Below, piece by piece: positions 20,354 to 64,000 of a DNA stretch of 64,000 nucleotides. Source of the stretch: a virus. Taxonomy: Duplodnaviria; Heunggongvirae; Uroviricota; Caudoviricetes. Position 1 is the stretch's first letter; each line of letters begins with the position of its first letter. The stretch is from positions 188,067-252,066 of IMG/VR virus record IMGVR_UViG_3300022719_000283; one strand, written 5' to 3'. Below the pieces are notes generated by a model that did no database searches, had not been told where the DNA came from, and saw only the letters and a list, made by a program, of their open reading frames with translations. The position numbers were made by a program, and so were the translations under genes.

Positions 20354-23300
20354 TACCCCTTCTCCTTGACCAACTCTTTCAGAAACAAAGCGCGGAACTG
20401 AGGAACTTCTCCGGCCAGGTCAAGAAGGTAAGTCGCGGCTTTTTTCTTGCGCTCTTTCTTCTCGTTGGTCTCCCGGACCTCCTCCCCCATCTTGTCCCAG
20501 ATCTCGTCGGAGATCTCCTCTTCCTCGGGCCCAAAGGTGGGATACCACTCGTGTTGATCCTTCTGGTCCTTCTTCGCTGCTGCTCGGTTCAGGAATTTGT
20601 CAGCCCCTACATTGGCCTTTTTCTTCGCAACATCTCGCACGTACTCGGTCAGGTACTTGAAGCTTCGGGAATCGGAGTCAAGGTCAAACGACAAATCTGA
20701 ACGGCTTCCGCGATCCTTCCACCAGTCACGAGCTTCCTGACTCGCCATCATCACGTCGAGAAAACGCAGGCCATTAGGAGCTTCCGGTCGGATCTGACGA
20801 ATCTGGTTTTGAATCTCTTCGGGCATCCGCTCAAACTTGGAGCTGGGAAAATTTCCGTCGTACCCAAACCGTGGCCAAACGTAGTATCCGTTGTACTGGT
20901 CATTCCGCCACGGGCCGTGTCCCGCCGCCGACACGTTGATGTGTTTGAACCCGTACTTGTTTGCTGCCGCCACCTGCGTAGCAAACATCTTGAGCCCCAT
21001 CGATGGAGGAGCGGAAGATCTAAGTGTGAAGTGCGAATTGCTAATCGAGTAGGGACTTCTATCCTGAAAACTGATGTAGCGACGCATGCTATTGATGTGA
21101 TCACCGGCCCCCGTCACAGTCACTTCTGATCCTCTAACCTTGATGGAGAGGCTCTTGAGTGATTTGGCCAGACCCCCAGCTCCGGACAAATCCGCGATAA
21201 CATGTCTTGGATTTGGCCCGTCCGCAGGCAAGTTCAACAACCTGCGCAGGGTTCCGTCATTCCCCCCAGTCACCGAAATCCGCACATCGTCGTAACGGCC
21301 GGACTGCATGTTGGGAGAGAGCTCTCCCTTCCCGGGTTCGGCGAATCCCCCAGGAGGTTCCTCAAGTGGGGGCAGAAGGGCCTCGGGTAAACTGCCAGTC
21401 TTGGTGAGGTAAGCCCAGCGTTTCAGGTCGGTTTTCGACAGCTCTTCAGGCTCTCCTTCGGGGTTACCCGTCTCAGCGTTGATAGGTTGAATCTTGAGCT
21501 TGTCCCCGATCGATTCGACACGAACCCATTTGGGGTTCCGGTAGTGCATCGCTTTCACTACCTGACCTTCACGAAGACGGGCGAACGACGTGACGCGTTG
21601 TCCGGTCTCGGCCCCTTCAGGAGAGAGAGCAATCTTGTATTCCCCTCCTTCCAGATCAGCCTTACGAACCCTCGTGGGGCGTCCCACACCACGACCCTCG
21701 TGCACATCTTGAATCTGAAATTGGGTCTTTGTCCGATGCACGACTCGGTACAGGTTATCCCCCTTCTTGACGTACGTACCGGGACCAACATCGGAAGGTG
21801 AGCTCACCGTGTGTCCAGGACCTATGAACCGCTTGTATGGGCCATGATTCCTGATGGAGGCGGCGGTGAAAGGCTCAGGACCTGCCCTCTGCCGGCCGCT
21901 CTCGTGCATGAGTCGAGCCATTACTGTGCCGTCTGGCCGAATTTCGACAACCTCACGATATAGGCTACTACCTTTCAGGTAGTCGTTACGGAAAGTGTCA
22001 CCGACCCGAAGAGCGCCAGGAAGGGTGATCGGTTCGCCCACGGGAACATGGGGTTGTTGCTCCTGCCTCTGTTGCTCCTGCCTCTGTTGCTCCTGCCTCT
22101 GTTGCTCCTGCCTCTGTTGCTCCTGCCTCTGTTGCTCCTGCCTCTGTTGCTCTTCGTCAGGATTCGGCTCGCGTCGATACTGACCGTAATTGCTATACGG
22201 ACCTGATCGCTGAATCTGCAACCGAGGGGTCGTTTGCGGGTCTTCCATAGGAGATCCGTTTCGAGCATTCACGCGCTGTGTCTTGAGATCTCCATTTGGC
22301 AACACTTCCAGCACCTTGCGGACCGTTCCATGGTTACGCAAGACGTTATTGGAGATGACATCTCCAGCACGGAGCTGGTTAGTGTCGTCGATGTTGTCCC
22401 CGACAGAAACTCGCGGCCCCTCGTCCGCTTGCTCGATAATCTTGTGGTTTTCGATCTGAGAACCGCTGATATGGGATCTCCCAATGAGGCCCCCATCCTC
22501 ATCGAGATTCTCAGTCCTGACGTTGTTGCCACTAATCTCCACGATCCTACGACGTGGAGCATTTTGCCGATCCGATTGAATCACATCTCCAACACGCAAA
22601 CGATCGAGACTTTGAACCCGCTCGCCCACTTGAGCTCGAGGTTGTGCCTCTTCCTCGCGCTCTTGAAGAACATAGTTTCGACGGAGGAAGTTCTCTGCGC
22701 CGCTCGTGCGCGTGCGACTACTCCAGGAGCCGTCGTCTTTCTTCCACTGAAACCGAACCACATGATCATCGACACTAACAACGCGAATGTTTTGGGGGGT
22801 GCCTGCTTCGGATTTCAGCACCATGCCCTCGCTGAGCTGATCAAGGCTCTGCACTTGAGATCCTGGCTCCAACCGGCCAACAGGTTGTGGCTGTTGTTGT
22901 TGCTGCTGCTGGCGCTGTTGCTTCCAGGCTTCGTACTCTCGCCCGATTGTGTTACGGAAATTCTCGTAGTTCATCGCGGTGTTGAACCGAATACGGGGTT
23001 CGGCTCGGTTGCGACGACGGCGACGCTGAACTGGATCGGGGTGCTCCACAAGCTCTCGGCCGCCTTGGTGTTTCTCGTTGAGGAACACCTGGAACAGATC
23101 TTCGTTCTCGAATCGGGCGGGCTCTCGACGCGGTCGACGTGGTCGCTGAGGAGCCGGACGGCGAGGAACTCCAGGAGGGGGCGCAAAAAGGTCCAGATCG
23201 TCGGATGGAGCTGCCGGGGGTGCTGGAGCTTGAGGCGCCGCAGGAGGTCGCTCAGGAGCTCGAGAAGGGGCACTCGGGGGCGGCGCGAAGAGATCAAGCT

Positions 23301-23835
23301 CGGGTTCGGGCTCAGGTTGCGCCTCCGCCGGTTCAGGGGCCCTCGATGGGCGTCTTGGAGGAGCACTCGGGGGCGGGGCGAAGAGATCAAGCTCGGGCTC
23401 CCTACGGGCTTGGGAAGGGGCCGCAGGGCGCTCAGGAGCGGGTTCTTGCGCAGCTCCTGGCGGGGGAGCAAAAAGGTCCAGACCATCGTCCTGACGCTGA
23501 GGCTCGGAAGAAAAGGGCTGGAACAGATTGAACTCAACCGCACGACCACCACCCCTCAAAATCGCATCTCGGAGCTCTTCATGCTGCTGAGCTAGATCGA
23601 GGATCTTGGCAGCTCGCTTTTTGCGTTGTTGGGCCTTCTCGCGCCTCCGTTTTTCCATGAGTTCGCGCCTCATCCGGTCCCACACGCTATCCATGATCTT
23701 CTCGTCCTCTTCCGTCAGGACAATCTCTTCGACCAGGCGACGCATCTGGGTCTTCGTCTTGGGGCGCGGTTTTCGGGAACTGGCCATGAGTCGGGTCCTA
23801 AAAGGGTGCAGGTCTCCCGTCCAAGGGAGACCCAT
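20353..23835 (-). CDS. Giant proline-rich protein (1160 aa) with 4 copies of ELDLFAPPP, a (QQRQE)n tract and a C-terminal domain shared with 18191-20353
   Basis: Long ORF. Repeats LDLFAPPPGAAQ, ELDLFAPPPSAP (twice) and DLDLFAPPPGVP. (QQRQE)7 is encoded by the 15-bp tandem repeat. C-terminal GYYVWP domain. Confidence 0.7.
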   Translation of the reverse strand: MGLPWTGDLHPFRTRLMASSRKPRPKTKTQMRRLVEEIVLTEEDEKIMDSVWDRMRRELMEKRRREKAQQRKKRAAKILDLAQQHEELRDAILRGGGRAVEFNLFQPFSSEPQRQDDGLDLFAPPPGAAQEPAPERPAAPSQARREPELDLFAPPPSAPPRRPSRAPEPAEAQPEPEPELDLFAPPPSAPSRAPERPPAAPQAPAPPAAPSDDLDLFAPPPGVPRRPAPQRPRRPRREPARFENEDLFQVFLNEKHQGGRELVEHPDPVQRRRRRNRAEPRIRFNTAMNYENFRNTIGREYEAWKQQRQQQQQQQPQPVGRLEPGSQVQSLDQLSEGMVLKSEAGTPQNIRVVSVDDHVVRFQWKKDDGSWSSRTRTSGAENFLRRNYVLQEREEEAQPRAQVGERVQSLDRLRVGDVIQSDRQNAPRRRIVEISGNNVRTENLDEDGGLIGRSHISGSQIENHKIIEQADEGPRVSVGDNIDDTNQLRAGDVISNNVLRNHGTVRKVLEVLPNGDLKTQRVNARNGSPMEDPQTTPRLQIQRSGPYSNYGQYRREPNPDEEQQRQEQQRQEQQRQEQQRQEQQRQEQQRQEQQPHVPVGEPITLPGALRVGDTFRNDYLKGSSLYREVVEIRPDGTVMARLMHESGRQRAGPEPFTAASIRNHGPYKRFIGPGHTVSSPSDVGPGTYVKKGDNLYRVVHRTKTQFQIQDVHEGRGVGRPTRVRKADLEGGEYKIALSPEGAETGQRVTSFARLREGQVVKAMHYRNPKWVRVESIGDKLKIQPINAETGNPEGEPEELSKTDLKRWAYLTKTGSLPEALLPPLEEPPGGFAEPGKGELSPNMQSGRYDDVRISVTGGNDGTLRRLLNLPADGPNPRHVIADLSGAGGLAKSLKSLSIKVRGSEVTVTGAGDHINSMRRYISFQDRSPYSISNSHFTLRSSAPPSMGLKMFATQVAAANKYGFKHINVSAAGHGPWRNDQYNGYYVWPRFGYDGNFPSSKFERMPEEIQNQIRQIRPEAPNGLRFLDVMMASQEARDWWKDRGSRSDLSFDLDSDSRSFKYLTEYVRDVAKKKANVGADKFLNRAAAKKDQKDQHEWYPTFGPEEEEISDEIWDKMGEEVRETNEKKERKKKAATYLLDLAGEVPQFRALFLKELVKEKG
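22054..22158. repeat. Seven tandem copies of a 15-bp unit (ctgttgctcctgcct), last copy degenerate
   Basis: Read directly at 22054-22158. It lies inside the 1160-aa ORF and encodes QQRQEQQRQE... on the minus strand. Confidence 0.9.
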
Positions 23836-23876: not shown

Positions 23877-25280
23877 CTAGCTCTTGAAGGTGAGCAGCGG
23901 CCGAAGACGAAGGACCGGGCTTGCAAGTCCTTGCTCTTCTTGGATTTTCACGATGGGATCGATGTCCTTGTAGGCTGCGGGAGCTTCCTCCCAGAGCCGC
24001 TCTTCACGAAGTGTCACGCAGTCCACCCCATCGAGTCCAAGATCGAAATCCGGCCGGCCTTTTCGAGTCATCTCAAACCGGGTCCGAGACCGACCCGCCC
24101 CGTGGGAAGCCGACCGCAAGAAACGGTCGTTCCCCAATCCTCGCATTACGTACGAGGATGTTCCCATGGAGCCGGGAATCAGAACCCACTGTCCTTCCCA
24201 GGCCGGCGTCGCACCCTTGCGATGAACGAAGGCATCGTCTTCGTAGGTCACGATGTTATGGGACACGTCGTAGAAACAGCTCGCATCAACATTTCCGAAA
24301 ACCTGACGAAATCGGTAACGCACCATCGTGGAGAGAAGGGCACGGTTCACAGCAGCGAAGTTAGCCGCACATCCCATGGCAAGCATGTACTCGTGGGCGT
24401 CCTCATTGTAGAGCGGGAACACTTCCGGCCACTTGAGCCCTTTCGGCCACTTTTTCTTCGCAATCTCTTGGAACCGTGTACCGATCCCCTTCCCCACCGA
24501 ACGGGAACCTGTGTGAATCATGAACACGATGTCTCCGTACTTCAGGTTGGGCCAGGTCCATTGGAGAGCCTCGTAATCAAGAACCTCTTCGACCATCTGG
24601 ATTTCGACGAAATGGTTCCCTCCTCCGACCGTCCCCAGGTCTGGGTCTCGGATCACGTCCCTGCTGTAGTCGATCCGGTCTTGAACCCACTTGGTGTCGG
24701 ACACGAAAGACCCCTGGTGCCAGATGTACTTGGCATCAAGGGCCAAGTGATCCTTGGCGCGAGCCATCAATCCCATCGGGTTCTTATAGAGCTCCTGTTC
24801 CCAACCATAGGCCCCGTGCTCGTAGATCGCGTGCAGGGTGGACGGAGTCATCGGAAGGTCCCGGGTCCCCAGCAAAAGATCACCGCGAAGTAGCTCCACG
24901 AGCTCGTCCTTGCGAGCGAGGAATTGGTCGACCGTTACGTCGATCAGATCCAAACGCATCCCGCAATTGATGTCCGTCCCGATGGCCTGCGGAATCACCA
25001 TGTCGGCCGTTGCCACAACGCATCCGACAGGAACGATGTTGCCAGGATGAAAGTCGGGAGTGGCACAGGCTTGACACACGTGGCCGCCACTTGGGTGGGA
25101 AGCCGAGGCAAATGACACGAGCTGTTTCACCGCTTTGGTCTCGAGCGGGGAGCCTTCGGGCAAAAGAATCTCAGCCGCCGGGCCTTCGTGAGAGGCGCGA
25201 CGAACCTTGTAAACAGGACCGTCTTGAGAAATCTCGATGCCTTCACGCAGGAGGGCTCGAGCCAGTCGTTTGAATTTCAT
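23877..25280 (-). CDS. rtcB: RNA ligase RtcB (3'-phosphate/5'-hydroxyl RNA ligase)
   Basis: GTVGGGNHFVEIQ, HTGSRSVGKGIG, IPGSMG and SHGAGR are RtcB active-site signatures. The start is set at the internal MKFKRL (residue 50 of the 516-aa ORF) to drop an implausible N-terminal extension. Confidence 0.85.
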   Translation of the reverse strand: MKFKRLARALLREGIEISQDGPVYKVRRASHEGPAAEILLPEGSPLETKAVKQLVSFASASHPSGGHVCQACATPDFHPGNIVPVGCVVATADMVIPQAIGTDINCGMRLDLIDVTVDQFLARKDELVELLRGDLLLGTRDLPMTPSTLHAIYEHGAYGWEQELYKNPMGLMARAKDHLALDAKYIWHQGSFVSDTKWVQDRIDYSRDVIRDPDLGTVGGGNHFVEIQMVEEVLDYEALQWTWPNLKYGDIVFMIHTGSRSVGKGIGTRFQEIAKKKWPKGLKWPEVFPLYNEDAHEYMLAMGCAANFAAVNRALLSTMVRYRFRQVFGNVDASCFYDVSHNIVTYEDDAFVHRKGATPAWEGQWVLIPGSMGTSSYVMRGLGNDRFLRSASHGAGRSRTRFEMTRKGRPDFDLGLDGVDCVTLREERLWEEAPAAYKDIDPIVKIQEEQGLASPVLRLRPLLTFKS

Positions 25281-25429
25281 GATGCTGAACTCCAGTGAAC
25301 CTCTCTCAACCGCGCGGGAGAGAGGCTCGGAAAGGGTCTGGTTGTTCAGCAGCCGCGGCAGTGCGCGGACAGCTCCTTGTAACCCAAGACCCGAAGAAGT
25401 GCAAGCGGGGCTGCCGGTAAGGTGCATGC

Positions 25430-26074
25430 GTGGCCGTCGTCCTTCCCGGCAAGTTCATCTTCCTGGCCCATCCTCACACCGGATCCAGCGCCATGGTCCT
25501 GGCCCTCCAAGACGTGTTCCCGGAAACATTCGATTTACGACCCCACCACATGCGCCTCACCGATGTTCGAAGTCATCAGGGAGGGGTAAGGATCACACAA
25601 ATCAGCCGGATACGTCAGCGTGTTTGGGATGAACGTCCGCACAAACGGATGCGAGATTCCGACGTGGATCCGGAGATGGTGCGGGCAGCTATCCAGGGAA
25701 CTGAGCGCATCTTCACGATCATCCGCAACCCTTACGACTTTCTGGTGACCTGCTACGTGCGCCGAGGACGGGATGCTTCCTTCGAAAAGTTTGTCCAGAG
25801 CTACAACGAGCCACCCTATATCGTGGACGGCCGGCTGTACTACCACGAACCCGACTGCGAGACCGTTTTACGTTGGGAAAAGCTTCAGGTCCAGCTCAAC
25901 AAGCTCATGCGGGAACTGAAGCTCCCCAAGGTCGAGCTCGGGAAACACAACGTCACGAAGGACAAGAAGCCTTGGGAAAGCTACTACACCCCCAAGGCTT
26001 TCGAAATCGTGAACGCACGGTTCAGAAAAGAGTTCGAACCATTCTACGAGCCCCGCAAGTCCGGTGCAGGATAG
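25430..26074 (+). CDS. Sulfotransferase-family protein
   Basis: The N-terminal P-loop-like LAHPHTGSS corresponds to the 5'-PSB PKSGTT motif. IRNPYDFLVTCY matches the 3'-PB motif R[ND]PxDxxVSxY. It is on the plus strand and overlaps the 3' end of the Tpt1 gene by 31 nt in convergent orientation. Confidence 0.5.
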   Translation: MAVVLPGKFIFLAHPHTGSSAMVLALQDVFPETFDLRPHHMRLTDVRSHQGGVRITQISRIRQRVWDERPHKRMRDSDVDPEMVRAAIQGTERIFTIIRNPYDFLVTCYVRRGRDASFEKFVQSYNEPPYIVDGRLYYHEPDCETVLRWEKLQVQLNKLMRELKLPKVELGKHNVTKDKKPWESYYTPKAFEIVNARFRKEFEPFYEPRKSGAG

Positions 26075-26658
26075 ATCCCCTTGCCGATCGAATTGTAACG
26101 ACGGTCCTCTGGCCAGAGCAGAAACTCGATGGGCACGTGATCCGTATACCAGACTCCGTTACCAGTCAGGTAAAACTTGTGCCCCTCATCGTGCATGACC
26201 TTGGCTCGGACCTTGATGATGATCGGACGACCCCGCCGCTCACCCACGCGAATGGCAGTCTCGTAGTCAGGGGATAGATGGACCGCATGACGATTCATCT
26301 TGAGTAGGCCCTCTTCTCGGATCGCAGGTACGAACCTCTCCGGAGTCCCGTGGTACAGACACTCCGGAGGCTCCCTCTCTTCGTATCCGAGGTCCACCGG
26401 AACGGAGTGTCCTTGTCGGGCGCGGATTCGTTCCCCGTCTTCGCTGAGTTCAAACCGTTTCTTGTCGTTGGTGTCGACGACTTCTTGCAGGAGCTCTCGG
26501 GTGAGTCCTCGAGCCCGTTTCTGATCGACAGAGCGCTTGAGTAGCTCATCCACATCGGCCCATCCGGCGTTGTCCAGCTCGATGCCGATTTTGCCCGGGT
26601 TGTGCCGGAGCACCAAGCTCAGGAACTTCGAATAGTTCTTCAGCTTTCGTTCTTCCAT
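26044..26658 (-). CDS. kptA: RNA 2'-phosphotransferase Tpt1/KptA
   Basis: SKFLSLVLRHNPGKIGIELDNAGWADVDEL, RFELSEDGERIRARQGHS, LYHGT and HAVHLS match the conserved Tpt1/KptA blocks. Confidence 0.85.
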   Translation of the reverse strand: MEERKLKNYSKFLSLVLRHNPGKIGIELDNAGWADVDELLKRSVDQKRARGLTRELLQEVVDTNDKKRFELSEDGERIRARQGHSVPVDLGYEEREPPECLYHGTPERFVPAIREEGLLKMNRHAVHLSPDYETAIRVGERRGRPIIIKVRAKVMHDEGHKFYLTGNGVWYTDHVPIEFLLWPEDRRYNSIGKGIYPAPDLRGS

Positions 26659-26668
26659 CGCGGCTCTC

Positions 26669-27001
26669 CTACTCTTCGGGTTCCATCGAAGACATCAACG
26701 GGTAATCGCTTCGACGCGCTAGTTCATGCACAATGGCACATTTGGTTTCGGCGATCTCGTGAGTATAGACCCCGGCCACCGACAGACCTTCTTGATGCAC
26801 TTGCATCGTGATCCGTTCCGCTTCGGTGCGCCCCTTACGGAAGACCTGCTGAACGAGCTGTACCACCCATTCGACAGGGGTGAAGTCATCGTTGTGAAGA
26901 AGGACTTTGTAGCGCCGGGGTTTTTGGAGTTCCTGCTTCTTTTTCTCGAGAAGACCCACTCCTCCCTGGCGGTTGTCTTCAGTATCATCGCGCTCAGGCA
27001 T
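26669..27001 (-). CDS. clpS: ClpS, ATP-dependent Clp protease adaptor
   Basis: YKVLLHNDDFTPVEWVVQLVQQVF...AERITMQVHQEGLSVAGVYTHEIAETK matches the ClpS core (YKV.LLNDDYTPMEFV...VH..G...CGVYT.EVAETK). Confidence 0.8.
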   Translation of the reverse strand: MPERDDTEDNRQGGVGLLEKKKQELQKPRRYKVLLHNDDFTPVEWVVQLVQQVFRKGRTEAERITMQVHQEGLSVAGVYTHEIAETKCAIVHELARRSDYPLMSSMEPEE

Positions 27002-27006
27002 CGTTC

Positions 27007-27654
27007 CTACTTTCTACGCCCCCGCTCAAAGATGCGCCAAACTTCAGTCACCTCCGGGCCAAACAGCCGGCTAGGGACCTCCTCCACAAGACGCATCTCA
27101 CGGTACTCCGGAACCTGTTGATCCTCGAGCGCGTGGAGGGTCTGCCAAGGAACAAGACCTCCCGTCTCCTCAATCGGATTCACGTTCTTGGACGACCTGT
27201 AGTAGAAGCCTGACACGAGCCCCCACCGGAGCCCGTCGATGCGACGGAAAAGCTCTTGGTAGTACTCCGTGTTCTGAGCTGCCGAGGCGGTGATCTCCGT
27301 GGAGAACAAACTGACGAAGGCCGTGATGGGCTTTCCCTCGAGCTCGGCGAGAAATGCAGGATCCCGGTAATTACCGGGACGTGGGTCTTGAGGTTCCGAA
27401 GGGTTTGAACTGGCGTTCTCATCGAACCCGACGTAACTCTCCCAAATTCCGTGTTGCCGGAACTCCTGCGATCGTCCACAACCCAGATCAACAACCCGGG
27501 GGACGCCGGCCACCATGGTGAAAAAGCGCAAGGCTCGGTCATGAGCCCGCCGCACCCCAGTTTCTGCCAAGTAGCTATCGTACTGCTCGTAAAAATCGTG
27601 GTCGTATCCCATCGAATCCTCTACATAGTACGAGGTCTCGATAGAATCAGTCAT
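27007..27654 (-). CDS. Putative SAM-dependent methyltransferase-like protein
   Basis: VVDLGCGRS resembles SAM-binding motif I (D/E-x-G-x-G). This is weak evidence. Confidence 0.35.
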   Translation of the reverse strand: MTDSIETSYYVEDSMGYDHDFYEQYDSYLAETGVRRAHDRALRFFTMVAGVPRVVDLGCGRSQEFRQHGIWESYVGFDENASSNPSEPQDPRPGNYRDPAFLAELEGKPITAFVSLFSTEITASAAQNTEYYQELFRRIDGLRWGLVSGFYYRSSKNVNPIEETGGLVPWQTLHALEDQQVPEYREMRLVEEVPSRLFGPEVTEVWRIFERGRRK

Positions 27655-27666
27655 GTGACAGATGCG

Positions 27667-27888
27667 TTAAGGGGTCAAACGGCGAGCAATCCCAGCATTT
27701 GCCCACATGCGCACTTCTTCCAGATGGGTCATGGCCAGGGACTGCTCACGAGAATCGGGGCAAAGCGCCACAATCAGGTCTGCCAGCTCGCGGACCTTGT
27801 CCCCGATTTTCGTGTATCGCTCGGGCTGGTCTCCGTGAGGAGGGTGGTAGGTGAACCGGGTATCGAGCTCTTCTTGGGTGAGAGGCAT
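27667..27888 (-). CDS. Small conserved phage-type protein (73 aa, RFTYHPP motif)
   Basis: MPLTQEELDTRFTYHPPHGDQPERY...ALCPDSREQSLAMTHLEEVRMWANAGIARR. The author recalls seeing this as a hypothetical in actinobacterial phages; function unknown. Confidence 0.45.
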   Translation of the reverse strand: MPLTQEELDTRFTYHPPHGDQPERYTKIGDKVRELADLIVALCPDSREQSLAMTHLEEVRMWANAGIARRLTP

Positions 27889-27910
27889 CCTCTACCATAC
27901 CCGATCAAGC

Positions 27911-28096
27911 TCAATCGGGTTTTCCATGACTCTCGAGAGTCACGTTACCGTGCTCGTCGACAGTGGTCTTGATGCCGTACTTCCCCCGAATGCCTCCTTT
28001 GCCGCATCCAGGATTCGGGCAAAAGTAGTTGCCAGTCTCGAGATCCCGCTCGAACTCGGCCCCGCACTCACGACAGCTCATCTTGATGCTTCCCAC
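27911..28096 (-). CDS. Small zinc-ribbon protein (61 aa)
   Basis: CRECG...CPNPGCGKGG is a four-Cys ribbon. Confidence 0.4.
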   Translation of the reverse strand: MGSIKMSCRECGAEFERDLETGNYFCPNPGCGKGGIRGKYGIKTTVDEHGNVTLESHGKPD

Positions 28097-28116
28097 GGTG
28101 CGACTCTACCGGTGCC

Positions 28117-28434
28117 TCACTCTTTGAGGCGCCATTCGTATATCGGTACTTGCCGCACATTTCCGCCCAGAGGACGAACGTTGTTGGCTGTACGCCAACG
28201 GCAAAAATGCTTGCCCTCCCCACCCCCCTTCACAAAACACCACGGGCACCGGGGCCGGGCGTCCACCACACTAGGATGGTGCCCGCGCCCTTCCGCTTGG
28301 GCGATCTCATCAACCTGGCTAGCCTGCATGGCTACCAGGCGGTACCCCACAACCACTCGCTCGTAGCGAGGGTCGTGCTCCTTACTGGGGTTGGGGTTGT
28401 TGTTCTGGCTCTTGTTGGAGTTGGACGTGTTCAT
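28117..28434 (-). CDS. Hypothetical protein (105 aa)
   Basis: ORF only; a plus-strand alternative overlaps it. Confidence 0.25.
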   Translation of the reverse strand: MNTSNSNKSQNNNPNPSKEHDPRYERVVVGYRLVAMQASQVDEIAQAEGRGHHPSVVDARPRCPWCFVKGGGEGKHFCRWRTANNVRPLGGNVRQVPIYEWRLKE

Positions 28435-28539
28435 GACGAGTTGCGAAGTGCAACTACGTCATGGCGGCTGTCTCCAAGGGAGCTTCAGTTGTGGTGCAGT
28501 GCGCACGAGTCCTCAAGATAGAGGGAGCTCGGATCGGAG

Positions 28540-29061
28540 TCAAGTCGAAAAAAGATCAAGAGCCGAAGGCTGATTCTCCCCCAGCCTCTCTCGGATTTCG
28601 TGCTCCGTCGCAAGCTCCCCGTCCTTCAGGATGTGAAGGAGCTCGATGCCTTGCTCGACCAGATCAGCCCCCACCAAGCGCCGCCGATGGCATCCAGAAG
28701 GGTCAGCTTCGCTACACATAAGCGTCACTTCACCGAGCTCCTTGTTCATCTCAAAGCCACGAAGGAGCTCCTGAAGGCCATCCTGGTACTTCTGCGAGGC
28801 CCGGATCTTGTCGTAGTCGGGAGCCCCCATTGTGAAAAGGTTAGGGTCGTCCGGAAGACCCCCCAGAGAGTGCCCCATCCAAACGTACGGAACCCCGGCC
28901 CTCCGCAAGTCCTCTGCAATCACGTACCGGTTGTACTGAGGGTTGTGGCGGCTAAAAGGCTTGCTCCGGATGTCGACGACCACGGCGATATTGCAGCCGC
29001 GCAGACGCCTGATGAGCTCCTCAGTGGACAGGTTGCTGTGGCCGATCGTGTAGCTCTTCAT
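28540..29061 (-). CDS. DUF488-family protein
   Basis: MKSYTIGHSNLSTEELIRRLRGCNIAVVVDIRSKPFSRHNPQY matches the DUF488 N-terminal consensus TIGHS....EF..LL....I..VVDVR..P.SR..P.F. Confidence 0.6.
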   Translation of the reverse strand: MKSYTIGHSNLSTEELIRRLRGCNIAVVVDIRSKPFSRHNPQYNRYVIAEDLRRAGVPYVWMGHSLGGLPDDPNLFTMGAPDYDKIRASQKYQDGLQELLRGFEMNKELGEVTLMCSEADPSGCHRRRLVGADLVEQGIELLHILKDGELATEHEIRERLGENQPSALDLFST

Positions 29062-29919: not shown

Positions 29920-30296
29920 GATCTCTTCCCTACCTCCACATCACCGAAAAACCGTTTACACGACCAGTCATACATCCCGTGACTAGCGTCGTAGTTATAC
30001 TGCTTCACGAGGTACTGGAGACGTAACCCGATAGAGACCGGGTCGGGGCGGTTCGTTTTGGGGCCTGGGGTTTTGACCGTGATGAGTTGGTAGCCGCGAC
30101 CTCCACGCGAAATCCTAACGGAATACTTAGCATTCGGGAGGATACCCGCACGAACATCGTCTTTGATGTCCCGCCGAATCCTTTTAGCAACTTCAGTCAG
30201 ATCAATATTCCGCGTTTCCCAGTACTTCGCCCCGATGTGGGGTGCGGCTTCGTAGGCAGCAATCTCCTTGATGAACTTCTCGAGCGTATCAGCCAC
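29907..30296 (-). CDS. Hypothetical protein (129 aa)
   Basis: ORF overlapping the rnhB start by 13 nt; no motif. Confidence 0.4.
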   Translation of the reverse strand: MADTLEKFIKEIAAYEAAPHIGAKYWETRNIDLTEVAKRIRRDIKDDVRAGILPNAKYSVRISRGGRGYQLITVKTPGPKTNRPDPVSIGLRLQYLVKQYNYDASHGMYDWSCKRFFGDVEVGKRSWCA

Positions 30297-30828
30297 CCCA
30301 GTTGATCCTTTTGTAGACTCCTTCTTTCTCTCCCCAGTCGAGCCACCGTTCGATCAGGACAGGCAGGCGTCCGGCCTCTTCCTGGCTGTGAACCGTCTCC
30401 CCCGTGATGTCGTGCAACGCAGCCAGAGGCTCCCAGATCGCAAGATCATCCCATGGCTCTTCGAAACAATCGAGCCGACGTAGGAGGGCTGGAACAGCCT
30501 CTTCGCCTAAATCAACGAGCTCTTTGTAGAGCGGATCATCAGTCACGATTCGGGACAGAAACTTGTGCTTCTTGTAGAGCTCTCGACAGAGTTCCTTGAC
30601 CTGATCCATGTGTGGGTAGTCTCCGAGTTGGTAAGTTCCGCTCTCGAGAGCTTTCACGGCTGCTTCCACACAGTCCGGGCAAGCTAAAAGCCGTCCTTCA
30701 TCCAAGGCATTAGCACTGGCGTGATCGAGCCCGGTGAACGCGAACTCACGATACCATGGCGTGTTACACCAGAAAACCTTCTTCTCTTTCGGGTGCTGAA
30801 TGTGCTTTACGTAACTCGGGAGTTTCAC
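30289..30828 (-). CDS. Hypothetical protein (179 aa)
   Basis: ORF in the operon-like run; no motif. Confidence 0.4.
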   Translation of the reverse strand: MKLPSYVKHIQHPKEKKVFWCNTPWYREFAFTGLDHASANALDEGRLLACPDCVEAAVKALESGTYQLGDYPHMDQVKELCRELYKKHKFLSRIVTDDPLYKELVDLGEEAVPALLRRLDCFEEPWDDLAIWEPLAALHDITGETVHSQEEAGRLPVLIERWLDWGEKEGVYKRINWGG

Positions 30829-31121
30829 CCCACCTCCACCAACTTTTCACGAAAGGTCTTGCGGGTGATCGCGTTGTAATCCCGCCGTGTGCGCGTCATC
30901 GGCTCCAGAAGTTTAGCCGACAGCTTGCGGCGTCCCTCCGGTGTACGGAAGTACTCCGACATCAGCTTTTGATTTCGCTCTCTTTGAGTGAGCATCTTTC
31001 CGGAGCCTTTGCATAAGTCGCAAGGGCGCCGGGTGACCAGCAGTACGATCTCGCCTTGGCCCAGACAGTCAGGACATTCGGCCATGCCCTGACTATACCG
31101 GCCAATCAATACGGATGTCAC
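30825..31121 (-). CDS. DnaJ-type CxxCxGxG zinc-finger protein whose C-terminal 40 aa mimic the capsid-protein N-terminus
   Basis: CPDCLGQGEI...CDLCKGSGK is the DnaJ-type finger. KLMSEYFRTPEGRRKLSAKLLEPMTRTRRDYNAITRKTF has 22 of 38 residues identical to KLISEYIKTPTGRAKLAASLTQPLRTRRDYTSVGRKTF at the N-terminus of 60096-60974. Confidence 0.6.
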   Translation of the reverse strand: MTSVLIGRYSQGMAECPDCLGQGEIVLLVTRRPCDLCKGSGKMLTQRERNQKLMSEYFRTPEGRRKLSAKLLEPMTRTRRDYNAITRKTFREKLVEVG

Positions 31122-31133
31122 TGGGCTTCCTCA

Positions 31134-31496
31134 TCAAGGAGCTACCTTCTTCTCGAACTCATCGAGAGCCTTCTCGTGCTCCTCTTGAGCCTCCTTCATC
31201 GGATCCGGTTTCGACGCTGGCTTGATCTCCACCTTCTGGGCAGGAGGGGTCGGTTCCGGCTTTTCAGGGAGCTCGATCCCTTCGGGCTCGAGAGGGTTCG
31301 GCAGTTTGTAGATGTAGCTGTCGACGATGCCAATGACGCCCAGGAGAGCCATGAGGGCAGCTCCAGCGGCTGCCCATCGTAGACCCCAAGCCAGGTGTTC
31401 GTCCTTCTCTTCGTCAGCAACCTCATGGAGCTTGCGGCGAAGAGCAAAGAGAAAGCCGATGCCGGCGGCAACGGCGATGATACTGACGATGCCCAT
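31134..31496 (-). CDS. Small membrane protein with two predicted TM helices
   Basis: Hydrophobic stretches IVSIIAVAAGIGFLFAL and WAAAGAALMALLGVIGIV, followed by a Pro/Glu/Lys-rich tail. Confidence 0.45.
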   Translation of the reverse strand: MGIVSIIAVAAGIGFLFALRRKLHEVADEEKDEHLAWGLRWAAAGAALMALLGVIGIVDSYIYKLPNPLEPEGIELPEKPEPTPPAQKVEIKPASKPDPMKEAQEEHEKALDEFEKKVAP

Positions 31497-31498
31497 GG

Positions 31499-32479
31499 TT
31501 ACTTGGCTTGCTCTTTCTCGGACTTCGGAGCCTCGGGTGCGGGGGTTTGCACGATCACATCGTGGTTGCCTTCGGCTACCGCCTCCGCCATCGCATCAGC
31601 GGAATCAGCGAACCGCTCCTGGTTCTTGAGCTCGACGTAGGTAGCGTAATCCACTCCGGCGATCTGGGCGTTGACCACGTCATTCTCCGCGCGTACTTTC
31701 TGAACGATCTGCCTCTGCTGTTCGACCTCGAGTTCGGCCTTGAGCGCACGGACGGTCCGGGCCTTCTCCTCATCGACCGCGTAGAGACGACGCTTGGCCT
31801 GAATCACCTCTCGAGGCACCTCACCAATCCCGTTCGGAAATCCGAGTTCGGTCACCACGATGGGGGCATCTCCGAGCATCTCGCTGATCGCCTGCTTGGT
31901 GGAATCCGCGATCTCAGGGACGTTTGTCAGGACCTCTTCGACAGTATGCTTGCGCAGCTCGGTCACGATGGCATCAGGAGCCTTGCGGGCCAGGTACTTC
32001 TCGTAGACTTGGTCTGCGGAGATCAGCATCGTGAAAGGGGCATCGCCTTCCGCGGACACCTTGGCGAAGATCTCATCTTGGCTCTCCTGGTCTGGCTTGA
32101 CTTCGAAAACCAGACCCACCTGCACGTTCTTGATGTCCACGTTGGAGTCGGGGAGGTACAGCGTATCGATCGTCATGTCTTTGGTGCTCTTGCTGACCTG
32201 AAGACGGACAAGCTTTTCGCACGCCTCGAGAGGCCCGCACCAATCCAGAAGGTACGCTCCCGGACCAACCGTTTTCTCTTCCAAACCATGTTTGCCGAGG
32301 ACGCGACCGACTTCGCCCGTTTCGACGGTCACACGCTCACCGACGCATGCGCCCAAGAAAAGGGCGGAGAACAGAACGGGAATGAAACGTTTCACAGGAC
32401 TTTTACCCTTCGCACGAAAGACCTTACCAGGTACCGAGTCTCGGTATTCCCAGGGCCTCCACAGCAGGGTTTTCGTCAA
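31499..32479 (-). CDS. SPFH (band-7/stomatin/HflK-like) domain lipoprotein
   Basis: Lipobox LFLGAC. VTVETGEVGRVLGKHG...TVGPGAYLL...TKDMTIDTLYLPDSNVDIKNVQV follows the SPFH pattern. Confidence 0.6.
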   Translation of the reverse strand: MTKTLLWRPWEYRDSVPGKVFRAKGKSPVKRFIPVLFSALFLGACVGERVTVETGEVGRVLGKHGLEEKTVGPGAYLLDWCGPLEACEKLVRLQVSKSTKDMTIDTLYLPDSNVDIKNVQVGLVFEVKPDQESQDEIFAKVSAEGDAPFTMLISADQVYEKYLARKAPDAIVTELRKHTVEEVLTNVPEIADSTKQAISEMLGDAPIVVTELGFPNGIGEVPREVIQAKRRLYAVDEEKARTVRALKAELEVEQQRQIVQKVRAENDVVNAQIAGVDYATYVELKNQERFADSADAMAEAVAEGNHDVIVQTPAPEAPKSEKEQAK

Positions 32480-53635: not shown

Positions 53636-54076
53636 TCAGCACTCCGGACACCGAACCGACGAAATCATCCCGATGTTACCGGTGCCCCCACAGCGGCGAC
53701 ACGTCAGCGGCTTGCCCGCCCCGAACCTCCAAGACGAGCCGTCCCGGGCCACGAACACGATCTCCTCCGCGTCCAAATCGGCCTTTTTGAAAGCCATGAC
53801 CAGACGACCCCACAGAGTGGCTTGGAGACCTGCTCGGATGAGTTTCGCGTTACACTCGATGTCCAAAATGTCCCGGCTGAACTGCCTCAAGTCAGCGTAG
53901 GCAGCGGTACCCAACCCGAATACGTCCACATCCACGTTGTGGACGTGCTCGAGGTGATCCAGCACCTCCCCCAGGGGACCTGGGGAGAGAGGCCGGGGAA
54001 TGAAATCCATCCCCGGCACGACGAGAACACGATGCGACCCCTCCGTAATGATGTCCCTGGCTCGAGCGAGCTCCAC
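53636..54076 (-). CDS. Partial capsid-protein paralog fused to a C-terminal zinc ribbon
   Basis: YADLRQFSRDILDIECNAKLIRAGLQATLWG has 22 of 29 residues identical to YADIRKFGRDILDIESQATLLKTGLQATLWG in 60096-60974. The encoding DNA is also similar. Ends CRRCGGTGN...CPEC. Confidence 0.6.
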   Translation of the reverse strand: MELARARDIITEGSHRVLVVPGMDFIPRPLSPGPLGEVLDHLEHVHNVDVDVFGLGTAAYADLRQFSRDILDIECNAKLIRAGLQATLWGRLVMAFKKADLDAEEIVFVARDGSSWRFGAGKPLTCRRCGGTGNIGMISSVRCPEC

Positions 54077-54085
54077 GTTGCAACT

Positions 54086-54766
54086 CTACCCTTTCTGTTT
54101 CGGAGGGGCGTCCCACCCGAGGTGACGCTCACGCCACGCAGCACAGTCCTGAGAGTGCTCGCCCGCGAAGGCCGGAGGGCTCACCGACCCGCAGCCGTCG
54201 CACCGGAACGAGAAAACGAACGCACCCCGCTCGTCCTCTCCCGTCTTCACGACCGTGAAGTCGCCGCGACACAGACCTGGAACAACCCGGAACCTCGTGT
54301 CCAGGGTCGTTCGCACTGTCCTCGTCGCGGGACGGTCGGAGAAGTCTGGCAAGTCGATGTGCCAGCGCAGCAGGTAGGAGCCGACCGCGACCTCGTCCTT
54401 CGGAACCAGCAGAGAGGCGTAATACACGTCGTCCTCGTCGAGGACCGGGACGCGCTCCTCTGGACCGATAAGCCCGAGAACCCCGTGAGGCACTTCGCTC
54501 ACGTCCACGTAGTAGAGGCTGTACCGGACGCGCCTCGCGAGCGGAAAGTGGATCGCCAGGTCCCGACGCCCCAGCTCCTGCCCGAGGACGAAAGTGGAAT
54601 GGGCCCCCAGCGTCTCCATGAGCCGGTCGGGGGAGCGCTCGTCGCCAGGAGGGTCAAGAGGACACGGGACGTACAGCGGCCTCCCGCGGGCGATCCCAGG
54701 CACGAGGGCCACGGCTGCTCCGGCCCCGACGGTCTTCACGAAGGTGCGGCGGTCCATGACGCCCAT
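54086..54766 (-). CDS. Tat-signal (twin-arginine) secreted protein
   Basis: Start set at the internal MGVMDRRTFVKTVGAGAAVALVPGIARG, which gives an RRxFVK twin-arginine motif, a hydrophobic core and an AxA cleavage site. Copy A of the conserved upstream element lies immediately 5'. Confidence 0.55.
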   Translation of the reverse strand: MGVMDRRTFVKTVGAGAAVALVPGIARGRPLYVPCPLDPPGDERSPDRLMETLGAHSTFVLGQELGRRDLAIHFPLARRVRYSLYYVDVSEVPHGVLGLIGPEERVPVLDEDDVYYASLLVPKDEVAVGSYLLRWHIDLPDFSDRPATRTVRTTLDTRFRVVPGLCRGDFTVVKTGEDERGAFVFSFRCDGCGSVSPPAFAGEHSQDCAAWRERHLGWDAPPKQKG

Positions 54767-60095: not shown

Positions 60096-60974
60096 CTAAC
60101 GGGTGACGGTGAGGCGCGTGAGGCCGCGGGGGTTGTAAGCCCCGATGCCGAGGTTCTCGAAGACCGAGAACCCGATGGTGCGCGCCTTGGGATCGTCCGC
60201 GGACAGGACCGTGAGCTCCGTGCGAACAGGGATGCGGCCAAACATCTCTGGCTCGCAGCACACGTAGACCGTGCCGGCGGGCACGATGCGGCTCGTGATG
60301 ACCTGGGCACCCCAGAGGGTAGCCTGAAGGCCGGTCTTGAGCAGCGTCGCCTGGCTCTCGATGTCCAGGATGTCCCGACCGAACTTGCGGATGTCGGCGT
60401 AGTCCCTGGCATTCATGTACACGCGCGCGACCCGGAGGTCGTGGCGCTCGATGAGAGCGAAGGCGTCGGCCAGCACAGCACCCGAGATCGGAGCGACCAC
60501 GGGAATGTCCGGGTTGAGACCACCGGGCAACGAATCGAAGCCGTTGGTGGCGATGGCATCCAGAACAGCGAAGACACGCTCGTCCTCGGCGGCCTGGATC
60601 TGCGCACGGGCAAGATCCTGGGCACGCTCGATGAGGTCGAAACGACGCTCCTTGATCTGGGTGAGCGGGATCTCGGGGTTCGAGGCAATCTCGAACAGCG
60701 GGAAGATCACACGACGCGGCTTGGTGACCGCGATGATGTTCTCGCCCTCTTCACCGACCACGTAGGCGGTGACATCGGGATCCTTGTCGTAGATCGGCAG
60801 GGCACCATCGGGAAGCTGCTCGACCAAGAAGGTCTTGCGGCCAACCGAAGTGTAGTCCCGTCGAGTACGAAGGGGTTGGGTGAGAGAAGCTGCGAGCTTG
60901 GCACGACCGGTTGGGGTCTTGATGTACTCGGAGATCAGCTTCTGCTTGACTGCGTTGGAAACACCAGTGGGCAT
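60096..60974 (-). CDS. HK97-fold major-capsid-protein-like (292 aa)
   Basis: Position: downstream of an acidic scaffold-like gene and a decoration-like gene. Size and composition fit. A conserved ILDIE...GLQATLWG region is present. No search was run, so the call is moderate. Confidence 0.5.
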   Translation of the reverse strand: MPTGVSNAVKQKLISEYIKTPTGRAKLAASLTQPLRTRRDYTSVGRKTFLVEQLPDGALPIYDKDPDVTAYVVGEEGENIIAVTKPRRVIFPLFEIASNPEIPLTQIKERRFDLIERAQDLARAQIQAAEDERVFAVLDAIATNGFDSLPGGLNPDIPVVAPISGAVLADAFALIERHDLRVARVYMNARDYADIRKFGRDILDIESQATLLKTGLQATLWGAQVITSRIVPAGTVYVCCEPEMFGRIPVRTELTVLSADDPKARTIGFSVFENLGIGAYNPRGLTRLTVTR

Positions 60975-61840: not shown

Positions 61841-63379
61841 TCAACGAGTCGGGGTGACTCCGAAGACCGACGAAACGTCGGGAGCGGACGCCCACAGTTT
61901 CGAGAGTTGGTCCATCTCATCGCCCGCGACCTTGGTCTGAGGAGCGACGTTGCCGAGACGCTGAGCGCCTTGGCTGGCGGCCTTCTGCTGAGGCTTGAGC
62001 TCGATGTTCTCGTCTCCAGCCTTCTTCTTGCCGCTCTCCTTCTCCTTGGGCGACTCTTCTTCACCCTCTTCCTTCGACTTCTCCTCGAGCTCTTCCATCT
62101 CCTCGAGAACGTCGCCGCCACCGATATCCTCGTCCTTGTCGGACTCGGCATCCTGGTCGTCAGCGCCAGTCTTGGGAAGATCGAGGTCCGCATAGAGCTT
62201 CATGAGCTCATCATCGGCGGAAGCCTCCTTCTCAACGAGGCTCAGAGGATCCTCCTCACCAGCAGTGAGTTGGATGTCGTTCTCCGCGGCTCCAGTGTCT
62301 TCGGCCTTCTTGCCATGAGGAGTGGGGTCGGCTTCCTTGTCCGAACCGTCACTCTGCGCGACGACGGGGGTAGGGGCGTATTCGTCGGGATTGACGTTGC
62401 CACCCTCGCCGCTTTGGATGGTAGGTCCCTTGGCGAGGTCCTCGGTGACGTCCTCGACTTCCGAAGCGCCCTTGGACATCTCCTCGTCCATCTCGTCGAG
62501 CATGGCCTTGAGCATGGCCTCTTCCTCGTCGTCCTCCTGGGCCATCTTGTCGCCTTCGGCCTCGTCGTACTCCTTGGTACCTTCCGACTCCTCACCGCGA
62601 TCGAACTCATCCTGCTCTTCGGATTGCTTGTCGCCGTAGCCGTAGTCGGGGGCATTTTGATCGACGCCATCGCCGTCCATGTCTTCGGCCATGAGGTACG
62701 CCATGAGCTCGTTGTCGCTCATGTCTTCCTCATCCCCCTCCCCGCCGAAAAAATGGGTCATAGCCTTGACCAGCTTGTTCATGCCGGACTCGAGCTTGTC
62801 GAGGCGGGCCGTGATCTCGTGGCTGGCCTTCTTGCCTCCCTCGATCTCGACTTCCTCTTCCTCTTCCTCTTCTTCTTCCTCGCCAGCGAGGACCTTGAGG
62901 GTGTTGGCGGTAGCGGAAAGCTGAGCGTCGTCGAGATCCATCAGCTCGAGGGCCTTGTTCTCGACAGCACCCGCATCAGCGCCGGGCATGAGGGCAGAAG
63001 CGATCCGCACGCAGAGGGTTGCGCGCTGTTCGGCCATCTCTTTGAGACTGGCCTGCTTCTTTCCACCACCGCCGCCTTGATCCATCGCCTCCTCGGGGCT
63101 CTCCGGGTCCTTTTGGAACTCGGAGGTAGCCGGGTGAGTGAGTTTGTCCGTCGTCAGGTTGCCGGGCATGGCCGGGGGAGGGGACTCCTCCGACATCGGC
63201 TTGTGGGGGTCCTCCGCCCAAGCGGAGGTGTCACCCTTCTCGTACTTGTCCTGATTGGGATCTTCGTAGTACGCCGGGTGGCTGGGCCCCTCGGTGCGAT
63301 CGACGGCCGGAACTTGAGGCGGCGGGGAAGCCGTCTTGTCCTGCTCGGCCTGCTTCCAAGTCTTGCGTTGACGTGCCAT
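61841..63379 (-). CDS. Very acidic scaffold-like protein (512 aa) with an E10 run
   Basis: Extremely D/E-rich with an EEEEEEEEEE tract. Sits upstream of the capsid module. Confidence 0.5.
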   Translation of the reverse strand: MARQRKTWKQAEQDKTASPPPQVPAVDRTEGPSHPAYYEDPNQDKYEKGDTSAWAEDPHKPMSEESPPPAMPGNLTTDKLTHPATSEFQKDPESPEEAMDQGGGGGKKQASLKEMAEQRATLCVRIASALMPGADAGAVENKALELMDLDDAQLSATANTLKVLAGEEEEEEEEEEVEIEGGKKASHEITARLDKLESGMNKLVKAMTHFFGGEGDEEDMSDNELMAYLMAEDMDGDGVDQNAPDYGYGDKQSEEQDEFDRGEESEGTKEYDEAEGDKMAQEDDEEEAMLKAMLDEMDEEMSKGASEVEDVTEDLAKGPTIQSGEGGNVNPDEYAPTPVVAQSDGSDKEADPTPHGKKAEDTGAAENDIQLTAGEEDPLSLVEKEASADDELMKLYADLDLPKTGADDQDAESDKDEDIGGGDVLEEMEELEEKSKEEGEEESPKEKESGKKKAGDENIELKPQQKAASQGAQRLGNVAPQTKVAGDEMDQLSKLWASAPDVSSVFGVTPTR

Positions 63380-63419
63380 TGTTGCAGTTCTCCTTCAGCT
63401 CTTGGTGTCTCGGGTTCGG

Positions 63420-63989: not shown

Positions 63990-64000
63990 AGGATCAGGGA

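Follow-up and report, generated by a model that had tools for sequence, protein, structure and literature searches.

A zinc hairpin fused to a copy of the capsid N-terminal arm: a small accessory protein family of huge phages with a phage-G-type capsid

The 64,000-nucleotide (nt) stretch of viral DNA analysed here (hereafter the window; positions 188,067 to 252,066 of IMG/VR record IMGVR_UViG_3300022719_000283, from a member of the Caudoviricetes) contains a 98-amino-acid (98-aa) open reading frame (ORF), z98, in which a small zinc hairpin is followed by a copy of the N-terminal arm (N-arm) of the major capsid protein (MCP) encoded about 29 kb away. The ORF exists exactly as described in an earlier note on this DNA, at 30825-31121. 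A GAGGA Shine-Dalgarno sequence lies approximately 6 nt 5′ of its GTG codon, its stop codon and the start of the following gene overlap by 4 nt (30825-30828), and gene calling on Logan contig L001 independently gave the identical 98-aa gene. As detailed below, z98 is a DnaJ/Anti-TRAP-like hairpin with one predicted zinc centre, fused to an ancient copy of capsid residues ~5-49, and among huge phages with a phage-G-type capsid it is a genuine accessory gene, maintained by selection yet dispensable.

The match between z98 and the MCP is statistically robust. By BLASTP, residues 51-90 of z98 align with MCP residues 11-49 with 25 of 40 positions identical, 32 of 40 positive and one 1-residue gap (E = 1e-14); the 22 of 38 identities given in the earlier note were an ungapped undercount of this alignment. 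A tblastn comparison of the MCP with the six frames of the window returned two significant secondary matches, one to z98 (E = 1e-10) and one to a 146-aa ORF, z146 (E = 2e-11), and no further MCP-like segments were found in the window, all other matches having E > 0.6. The BLASTP and tblastn statistics rule out a chance or low-complexity match. A generic helix-turn-helix (HTH) or NUMOD motif was also considered as the cause of the similarity and rejected: in a Pfam scan, the z98 segment shared with the capsid protein matched no generic HTH, NUMOD or nucleic-acid-binding family, and in PHROGs, residues 40-96 of z98 were assigned to a 'major head protein' profile, within its N-terminal part. The similarity thus survives both tests to which the earlier note had exposed it.

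The source protein is an HK97-fold MCP, and the part copied in z98 is its N-arm, as the earlier note had proposed. The MCP shares 39% identity with Bacillus phage G gp27 along its entire length, 49% with the major head protein of Tunturi_5 and 91% with a protein encoded by LR745208, a metagenomic phage of 485 kb; it also matches the solved gp27 chain (PDB 6WKK_A) with E = 4e-62. More than 2,000 homologs were found in metagenomes, the best 120 of which are all at least 90% identical to the MCP. Because the profile of the z98 family matches the gp27 N-terminus (6WKK residues 4-66, E = 2e-8, with the N-arm corresponding to gp27 residues 4-46), the copied segment can be placed in the N-terminal arm ahead of the HK97 E-loop. 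This mapping of the copied segments onto MCP domains is based on homology to gp27 and on general HK97 topology. The copied N-arm segment consists of a basic helix-turn-helix followed by a linker of the form RRDY..GRKTF. Homology between z98 and the MCP stops at MCP residue 49, exactly at the start of the E-loop, and z98 ends 8 residues further on. z98 has no E-loop, P-domain, spine helix or A-domain, and is therefore incapable of forming a shell subunit.

The AlphaFold model of z98 contains a zinc beta-hairpin at residues 24-33 (predicted local distance difference test (pLDDT) score ~87), after which helices 46-59 and 61-72 form a helix-turn-helix (pLDDT ~88); the latter two are mirrored by helices 7-19 and 21-32 in the model of the MCP. 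The zinc motif comprises two CxxCxGxG repeats (CPDCLGQG and CDLCKGSG). The description of z98 as a DnaJ-type zinc finger therefore stands at the level of the CxxCxGxG motif, but not beyond it, since only one zinc centre is predicted and the match to Pfam DnaJ_CXXCXGXG (PF00684; E = 1.6e-4, 22.3 bits) is below the curated cut-off of 32.7. No other Pfam domain in z98 scored above its cut-off, and neither a J-domain nor substrate-binding domains were found. The protein is basic, with an isoelectric point (pI) of 9.9 and a net charge of +8 over residues 46-98.

z98 has a companion. As the earlier note had observed, a second zinc-hairpin protein in the window, z146, carries a different piece of the MCP: its residues 29-94 align with MCP residues 162-226 with 29 of 66 identical (44%, E = 9e-15). 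It carries only A-domain residues ~162-250 of the MCP, and this piece is acidic (net charge -4). A regular-expression scan of all six frames of the 64-kb window for CxxCxGxG..CxxC ORFs found exactly two, z98 and z146. By a rough estimate, the chance that two hairpin ORFs would coincide with two capsid-fragment ORFs among the ~80 genes of the window is about 1 in 3,000, and the association between hairpin and capsid piece is specific. Residues 29-123 of z146 are also homologous (E = 2e-10) to a 136-aa ORF on another metagenomic contig (L009:902-1312), which sits two genes upstream of the z98-family gene of that contig. z98 can be linked with z146 because genes of the N-arm type and of the A-domain type are neighbours in the L009 phage. 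In the window, z146 is adjoined by a 226-aa protein (54086-54766, minus strand) with an N-terminus resembling a twin-arginine (TAT) signal. The coordinates of the principal features are collected in Table 1.

Table 1. Features of the window discussed in the text (positions as in the 64,000-nt stretch)
Feature	Position	Strand	Remarks
z98	30825..31121	minus	98 aa, GTG start; zinc hairpin plus capsid N-arm-copy protein
z98 zinc hairpin, residues 16-41	30999..31076	minus	CPDCLGQG-x10-CDLCKGSG; one predicted zinc centre
z98 capsid N-arm-derived module, residues 46-90	30852..30986	minus	helix-TPEG turn-helix, then RRDY..RKTF
z146	53636..54076	minus	146 aa; A-domain piece plus C-terminal zinc hairpin
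z146 capsid A-domain-derived residues 29-123	53708-53992	minus	BLASTP to MCP
z146 C-terminal zinc hairpin	53639-53701	minus	CRRCGGTG-x9-CPEC; sequence motif
MCP (HK97 fold)	60096..60974	minus	292 aa; source of both copied segments
MCP N-arm residues 5-49	60828-60962	minus	segment copied in z98
MCP A-domain residues 162-250	60225-60491	minus	segment copied in z146
512-aa protein	61841..63379	minus	acidic, low-complexity; two genes upstream of MCP gene; candidate scaffold
SPFH/Band-7 protein	31499-32479	minus	Pfam Band_7; upstream flank of z98
120-aa membrane protein	31134-31496	minus	upstream flank of z98
179-aa protein	30289..30828	minus	downstream neighbour, overlaps z98 by 4 nt; conserved beside family gene

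z98 belongs to a conserved, selected and syntenic family in metagenomes, with no member found in deposited phages. A word-index protein search with z98 returned z98 alone, which was misleading, as the family was seen only by exhaustive HMMER searching. A phmmer search against 1.84 billion cluster representatives gave 35 matches; those to P0122-P0130 (E = 3e-15 to 2e-6) extend across zinc hairpin and N-arm module alike. A profile search and metagenome scan added P0157-P0159 and loci L094-L099, and approximately 15 relatives share the architecture of z98. The four cysteines and the glycines of CxxCxGxG-x10-CxxCxGxG are invariant in 9-10 family members. In the module, the family conserves Y-x-K-T-P-E-G-R-x-K-L (in looser form T-P-x-G-R-x-K-L) and usually also R-R-D-Y-x-S-x-x-R-K-T-F, and most members share the end point of MCP homology after RKTF (MCP residue 49). 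Variations on this plan include P0125 and P0128, which carry the N-arm module twice; the second copy in P0125 continues into the start of the E-loop (…GRKTFSTEDLPEGALPEYDEG). P0129 has a precomputed match to PF00684.

Two larger relatives, P0130 (274 aa) and P0157 (281 aa), have the same N-terminal zinc hairpin as z98 and align with the MCP over the N-arm, E-loop and spine helix (hhalign, 88%, E = 3e-6); a C-terminal colinear high-scoring segment pair to the MCP was non-significant (BLASTP, E = 0.97). Judging from these alignments, the two are probably paralogs of the MCP that have diverged, remain close to full length and bear a zinc hairpin at the N-terminus. Adjoining P0130 is a 411-aa protein (L012:2033-3268) in which this type of hairpin (C[RQK]ECNDTGEI.LVNDFKVPC) occurs at least three times. 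These phages reuse the zinc hairpin as a module. In P0137, P0146 and P0154, TAT-like leaders (RRGFL/RRDFL plus a hydrophobic stretch) are fused directly to a capsid N-arm module or a capsid-like body; in P0137, the body behind the leader has no E-loop. Some of these leader fusions may represent truncated or mis-called genes.

The known distribution of the family is narrow. Known members are all singletons on 1-6 short contigs, and the exact z98 and z146 proteins occur in samples of one study only. No family member was found in deposited phages, including phage G, Tunturi_5 and LR745208, or in GTDB genomes; LR745208 shares the capsid module of our phage but not the z98 region. A search of IMG/VR for the z98 family returned capsid genes only, and z146-based and P0130-type scans of the same database gave nothing informative. 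Anchor scans with the 179-aa and SPFH proteins that flank z98 yielded one weak and one useful locus.

On the minus strand, the gene order around z98 is SPFH/Band-7, 120-aa membrane protein, z98, 179-aa, 129-aa and 257-aa proteins and DUF488, with ClpS and RtcB further on. The order SPFH, membrane protein, cassette, 179-aa protein, RNase HII and DUF488 is colinear between the window and L094/L095 over ~12 kb at 51-74% protein identity, and an 84-aa ortholog of z98 (53% identical) occupies the same slot there. Orthologs of the 120-aa membrane and SPFH proteins are 51% and 71% identical, respectively, in L094/L095, and 44% and 72% identical in L101. The 179-aa protein, which had no match in Pfam, PHROGs or PADLOC, has orthologs (33-64% identity) downstream of the family gene in L094/L095, L009-L011 and L013, and L096/L097, L009-L011 and L013 share the 179-aa and/or RNase HII-DUF488 neighbours, with partial colinearity in L096, L009 and L013. 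A z98-family gene is found in the same syntenic slot in four metagenomic contig types (L094/L095, L096/L097, L009-L011 and L013). The slots in L095 and L009 add a zinc-hairpin paralog whose hairpin and first helix-turn-helix are homologous to those of the family (hhalign, 98%, E = 1.6e-13), and that in L009 also contains a 61-aa stand-alone module ORF. The z98 slot is a variable cassette.

Substitution rates, estimated by the Nei-Gojobori method, point to a long history for these genes. Between z98 and its orthologs, the ratio of nonsynonymous to synonymous substitution rates (dN/dS) is 0.22-0.27 at a dS of 1.6-2.5, compared with a dN/dS of 0.32 and a dS of 1.4 for the neighbouring membrane protein. 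The comparison of the z98 module with the resident MCP N-arm gives a dN/dS of 0.17 (dS ~1.8), and that of the z146 fragment with the MCP gives 0.34 (dS ~1.3). Together with a DNA identity of ~65-70% between the shared segments and the MCP gene, these estimates mark the capsid copies in z98 and z146 as ancient and held by purifying selection. Recent duplication or homing-endonuclease co-conversion was rejected as an origin, given that DNA identity is only ~65-70%, dS is near saturation and the nearest LAGLIDADG array is 26 kb from z98. An in-frame alignment also crosses the capsid ribosome-binding site and ATG, over a stretch too short for interpretation.

An origin from a foreign capsid gene was likewise rejected, as no MCP matches the z98 module better than the resident one or its closest relatives (range 45-62.5%). 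Module identity is 62.5% to the resident MCP and its nearest relatives versus 45-60% to other sampled MCPs, and is much lower to gp27. That the module is closest to the resident MCP lineage points to an origin inside this capsid lineage. Of the three N-arm substitutions specific to the resident MCP, two (L13 and L31) recur in z98, a suggestive overlap in a very small sample (n = 3). Most probably, z98 was derived from a zinc-tagged capsid paralog by truncation; forms close to full length apparently persist (P0130 and P0157), and z146 retains the A-domain piece with a hairpin of the same type. The simplest history that we can offer would start with a zinc-tagged MCP paralog, truncated derivatives of which were retained as hairpin plus N-arm (z98) and as A-domain plus hairpin (z146). 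As an evolutionary and architectural finding, z98 is solid.

Several other features of the window and of related contigs were recorded. Directly downstream of the MCP gene lie three consecutive LAGLIDADG_2 homing-endonuclease genes (56849-58054, 58097-59068 and 59082-59963, minus strand); L004 and L006 have one large LAGLIDADG-containing ORF at this site and L007 has none. The 3′ flank of the capsid gene is a homing-endonuclease hot spot. Upstream of the head module, a 955-aa gene (window ~63420-64000, minus strand, running off the window end; L002:1-657) has Hint/intein and LAGLIDADG_3 matches and encodes an intein-containing protein. Host-like functions are found at 23877-29061 (minus strand), namely an RtcB RNA ligase (23877-25427), a ClpS adaptor (26669-27001) and DUF488 (28540-29061), and a PAPS-reductase/DUF3440 protein is found at 55582-56886. 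A TnpB/Cas12f-like protein (39225-40667, minus strand) has a Cas12f1-like TNB domain and a sub-threshold OrfB_IS605 match. A perfect 15-nt tandem repeat at 22055-22150 (plus frame), within or antisense to a 1160-aa gene (20353-23835, minus strand), reads CCSCL six times. Residues 7-69 of the 179-aa protein beside z98 form a His/Cys-rich N-terminal domain (YVKH..HP...WC...GLDH...AC..C) that recurs at 43% identity in hypothetical proteins of Vibrio phages with 44-kb genomes (159E series). In addition, a protein with the N-terminus MTQNKxFKKxVRxRMAxTGETYxQARR is encoded directly upstream of zinc-hairpin genes at L095:6663-8021, L096:1676-2710 and L009:21-902; it is not next to z98 in the window.

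What a free-standing N-arm might do is suggested by better-known phages. In P22, scaffolding proteins dock at the coat N-arm helix on the inner face of the procapsid, and this helix refolds on maturation (PMC9965877). Similarly, the 80alpha scaffold docks at the coat N-arm, where SaPI1 CpmB competes for the site (PMC5644958). By analogy, the mechanism that we favor for z98, albeit at somewhat short of an even chance, is molecular mimicry, in which its N-arm copy would dock where the genuine N-arm docks. The copy would then occupy the genuine N-arm's site on the inner face of the assembling procapsid. Charge offers a candidate partner. Residues 1-49 of the MCP have a net charge of +8 and the rest of the MCP one of -8, and the N-arm modules of the z98 family range from +4 to +9. 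The 512-aa protein encoded upstream of the MCP has a net charge of -85, a pI of 4.1 and long glutamate runs; the gene order of this region is conserved in relatives, and the protein is a candidate scaffolding protein with which the basic N-arm copy of z98 might pair. (A plus-strand ORF opposite the 512-aa gene, at 61907-63559, is likely spurious.) Docking of this kind could tether the zinc hairpin to the scaffold or to the prohead interior, which would amount to capsid targeting. Alternatively, z98 might titrate N-arm contacts and so modulate assembly, and members with two modules, as well as tandem paralogs, might bind multivalently. A capsid-targeting or assembly-interfering peptide, as had been proposed in the earlier note, is thus plausible, in view of the analogy with P22 and 80alpha and of charge complementarity.

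A number of observations weigh against such mimicry, and some of them suit other explanations at least as well. z98 lies ~29 kb from the capsid gene, amid non-structural genes (RtcB, ClpS, DUF488, RNase HII-like and SPFH), and the corresponding slot in L101, where SPFH is 72% identical, holds other genes and no z98-family member. Assembly of this capsid type does not require z98, given its absence from the L101 slot and from phage G, Tunturi_5 and LR745208; orthology and selection, set against absence from L101, deposited phages and GTDB, indicate a gene that is old and maintained where present, but rare and dispensable. The MCPs of relatives are at least 90% identical, compared with 63% identity between the z98 module and the resident N-arm, so that the module may no longer fit the same site. 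The N-arm of phage G has a net charge of 0 and is not basic, and the assignment of the 512-aa protein as a scaffold is based on composition and position only. Finally, the AlphaFold model of the MCP has a pLDDT of 36, with moderate confidence only for helices 7-19 and 21-32, because the usable homologs are too alike (at least 90% identical). The non-structural, variable context and the absence from close relatives would fit an anti-defense decoy about equally well. In that case, z98, with an N-arm epitope, and z146, with an A-domain epitope, would present these on a zinc hairpin to soak up or jam capsid-sensing immune sensors without triggering them. Such sensors exist: Avs7/8/10 wrap the HK97 fold and engage the A-domain, and Lit and CapRel recognize short motifs in the capsid protein (PMC13581612). 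z98 and z146 are rare accessory genes with a patchy presence, their position in variable cassettes amid non-structural genes fits anti-defense at least as well as an assembly factor, the same hairpin type is fused to two different capsid pieces, and the module evolves faster than the capsid protein itself. A decoy is the main rival to docking, although we consider it unlikely. A fragment bearing the sensed epitope would be expected to set the sensor off and not to inhibit it, unless its binding were specifically non-productive; z98 and z146 have modest identity to the resident MCP, at 63% and 44%, respectively; and no PADLOC or anti-defense family matched z98, z146 or their neighbours, the sole match being one of 14.7 bits to the zinc motif of z98. 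It is tempting to speculate more broadly that huge phages with phage-G-type capsids keep a fast-evolving 'capsid epitope display' cassette, in which a shared type of zinc hairpin bears an N-arm, an A-domain or an entire diverged paralog as a mimic of the phage's own capsid protein, either to blind capsid-sensing immunity (Avs7/8/10, CapRel, Lit) or to sabotage the assembly of co-infecting relatives, although we would expect this idea to fail considerably more often than not.

The basic character of z98 also raises the prospect that it is a small nucleic-acid-binding protein, either a regulator or a packaged DNA-associated protein, whose hairpin and basic helix-turn-helix bind DNA or RNA and whose likeness to the capsid reflects ancestry only. 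The pI of 9.9 and the module charge of +8 would suit this role, N-arms line the DNA-facing inner surface of the capsid (from general knowledge of HK97-type capsids; PMC5644958), and weak top Foldseek matches of the z98 model include the zinc modules of lambda Q and UvrA. All Foldseek matches, however, are non-significant (E at least 0.12), with a root-mean-square deviation of 16-22 Å for lambda Q; Pfam gives no match to an HTH or nucleic-acid-binding family; conservation falls on positions common to capsid N-arms; and the same hairpin is also found on the acidic A-domain piece of z146. We judge this role to be improbable. Least probable of all, and by a wide distance from anything we would expect, is that z98 and z146 are non-functional relics, that is, decaying leftovers of a capsid-gene duplication or homing-endonuclease rearrangement that became fused by chance to zinc-finger ORFs. 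The LAGLIDADG genes directly downstream of the MCP, the position of z146 ~2.8 kb from that array, the restriction of the exact proteins to the samples of one study and the rarity of the family could be taken in its favor. Conservation and selection have already largely refuted it, however: the architecture and intact zinc ligands are kept in ~15 diverged members, positional orthologs occur even where the proteins encoded alongside share only 50-70% identity between phages, dS is near saturation with a dN/dS of 0.2-0.3, and the breakpoint after RKTF is common to most members. Moreover, z98 is preceded by a good Shine-Dalgarno sequence, its stop codon overlaps the start of the adjacent gene, and it lies 26 kb from the nearest homing-endonuclease gene.

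Proteins of the z98 type appear to be undescribed so far, as literature searches found no prior description of zinc-finger/capsid-fragment fusions. Known capsid-derived accessory proteins are whole HK97-fold paralogs (T4 gp24, for example, is the vertex paralog of gp23), whereas here sub-domain pieces are kept under selection as small genes, one of them corresponding to the N-arm, which in model phages is a scaffold-docking and maturation-switch element. If z98 and z146 dock on assembly partners, they would provide a handle on the building of T=52-class giant capsids as well as a ready-made tag for capsid targeting. Should they act as decoys for capsid-sensing immunity, they would exemplify a new anti-defense principle, and if self-mimicry of the capsid protein proves true, a new class of self-mimicry effector. 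The finding also supplies a name and a search profile for orphan ORFs in huge-phage metagenomes.

z98 can be compared with several known systems. Its residues ~46-90 share ancestry with the N-terminal ~45 residues of phage G gp27 and its homologs (6WKK; Pfam Phage_capsid_4) and have the same predicted helix-turn-helix, but z98 has a zinc hairpin, whereas canonical capsid proteins of the gp27 type have none. With the cysteine-rich domain of DnaJ/Hsp40 (PF00684), z98 shares the CxxCxGxG motif and the hairpin spacing; it differs in having two repeats and one predicted zinc centre rather than four and two, and in having no J-domain, G/F region or C-terminal substrate-binding domains. Like Anti-TRAP of Bacillus (53 aa) and BSD2, z98 is a small protein built on CxxCxGxG zinc hairpins, and in Anti-TRAP too a helix follows the hairpin. 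A Foldseek search of the z98 model against the PDB gave no significant match, the nearest weak ones being Anti-TRAP, the DnaJ zinc finger and BSD2; the Anti-TRAP match has a template modelling (TM) score of 0.52-0.61 over ~47 residues (E = 0.53, with TM 0.61 normalised to the 53-aa target), and the Pfam Anti-TRAP family (PF15777) matches z98 with E = 0.012 and 16.1 bits against a cut-off of 32. Anti-TRAP and BSD2 bind large homo-oligomers (the TRAP 11-mer and RbcL8, respectively), which makes for a functional analogy to z98 in which homology is not demonstrated. Unlike either protein, z98 has as its target-recognition part a capsid-derived module that is without counterpart there.

The proposed docking of z98 would follow the logic of the 80alpha scaffold and SaPI1 CpmB (PMC5644958) and of P22 gp8 (PMC9965877), in which a helical element competes at the contact between coat N-arm and scaffold C-terminus. 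CpmB and gp8, however, are mimics on the scaffold side and have no sequence relationship to z98, which would mimic the coat side. SaPIbov5 Ccm (PMC8569155) and T4 gp24 are, like z98, products of extra genes descended from the MCP, and act on or in capsid assembly; P0130 and P0157 look similar in type. Ccm and gp24, however, have the complete HK97 fold and are incorporated into the lattice as subunits, whereas z98 and z146 each consist of a sub-domain fragment joined to a zinc hairpin.

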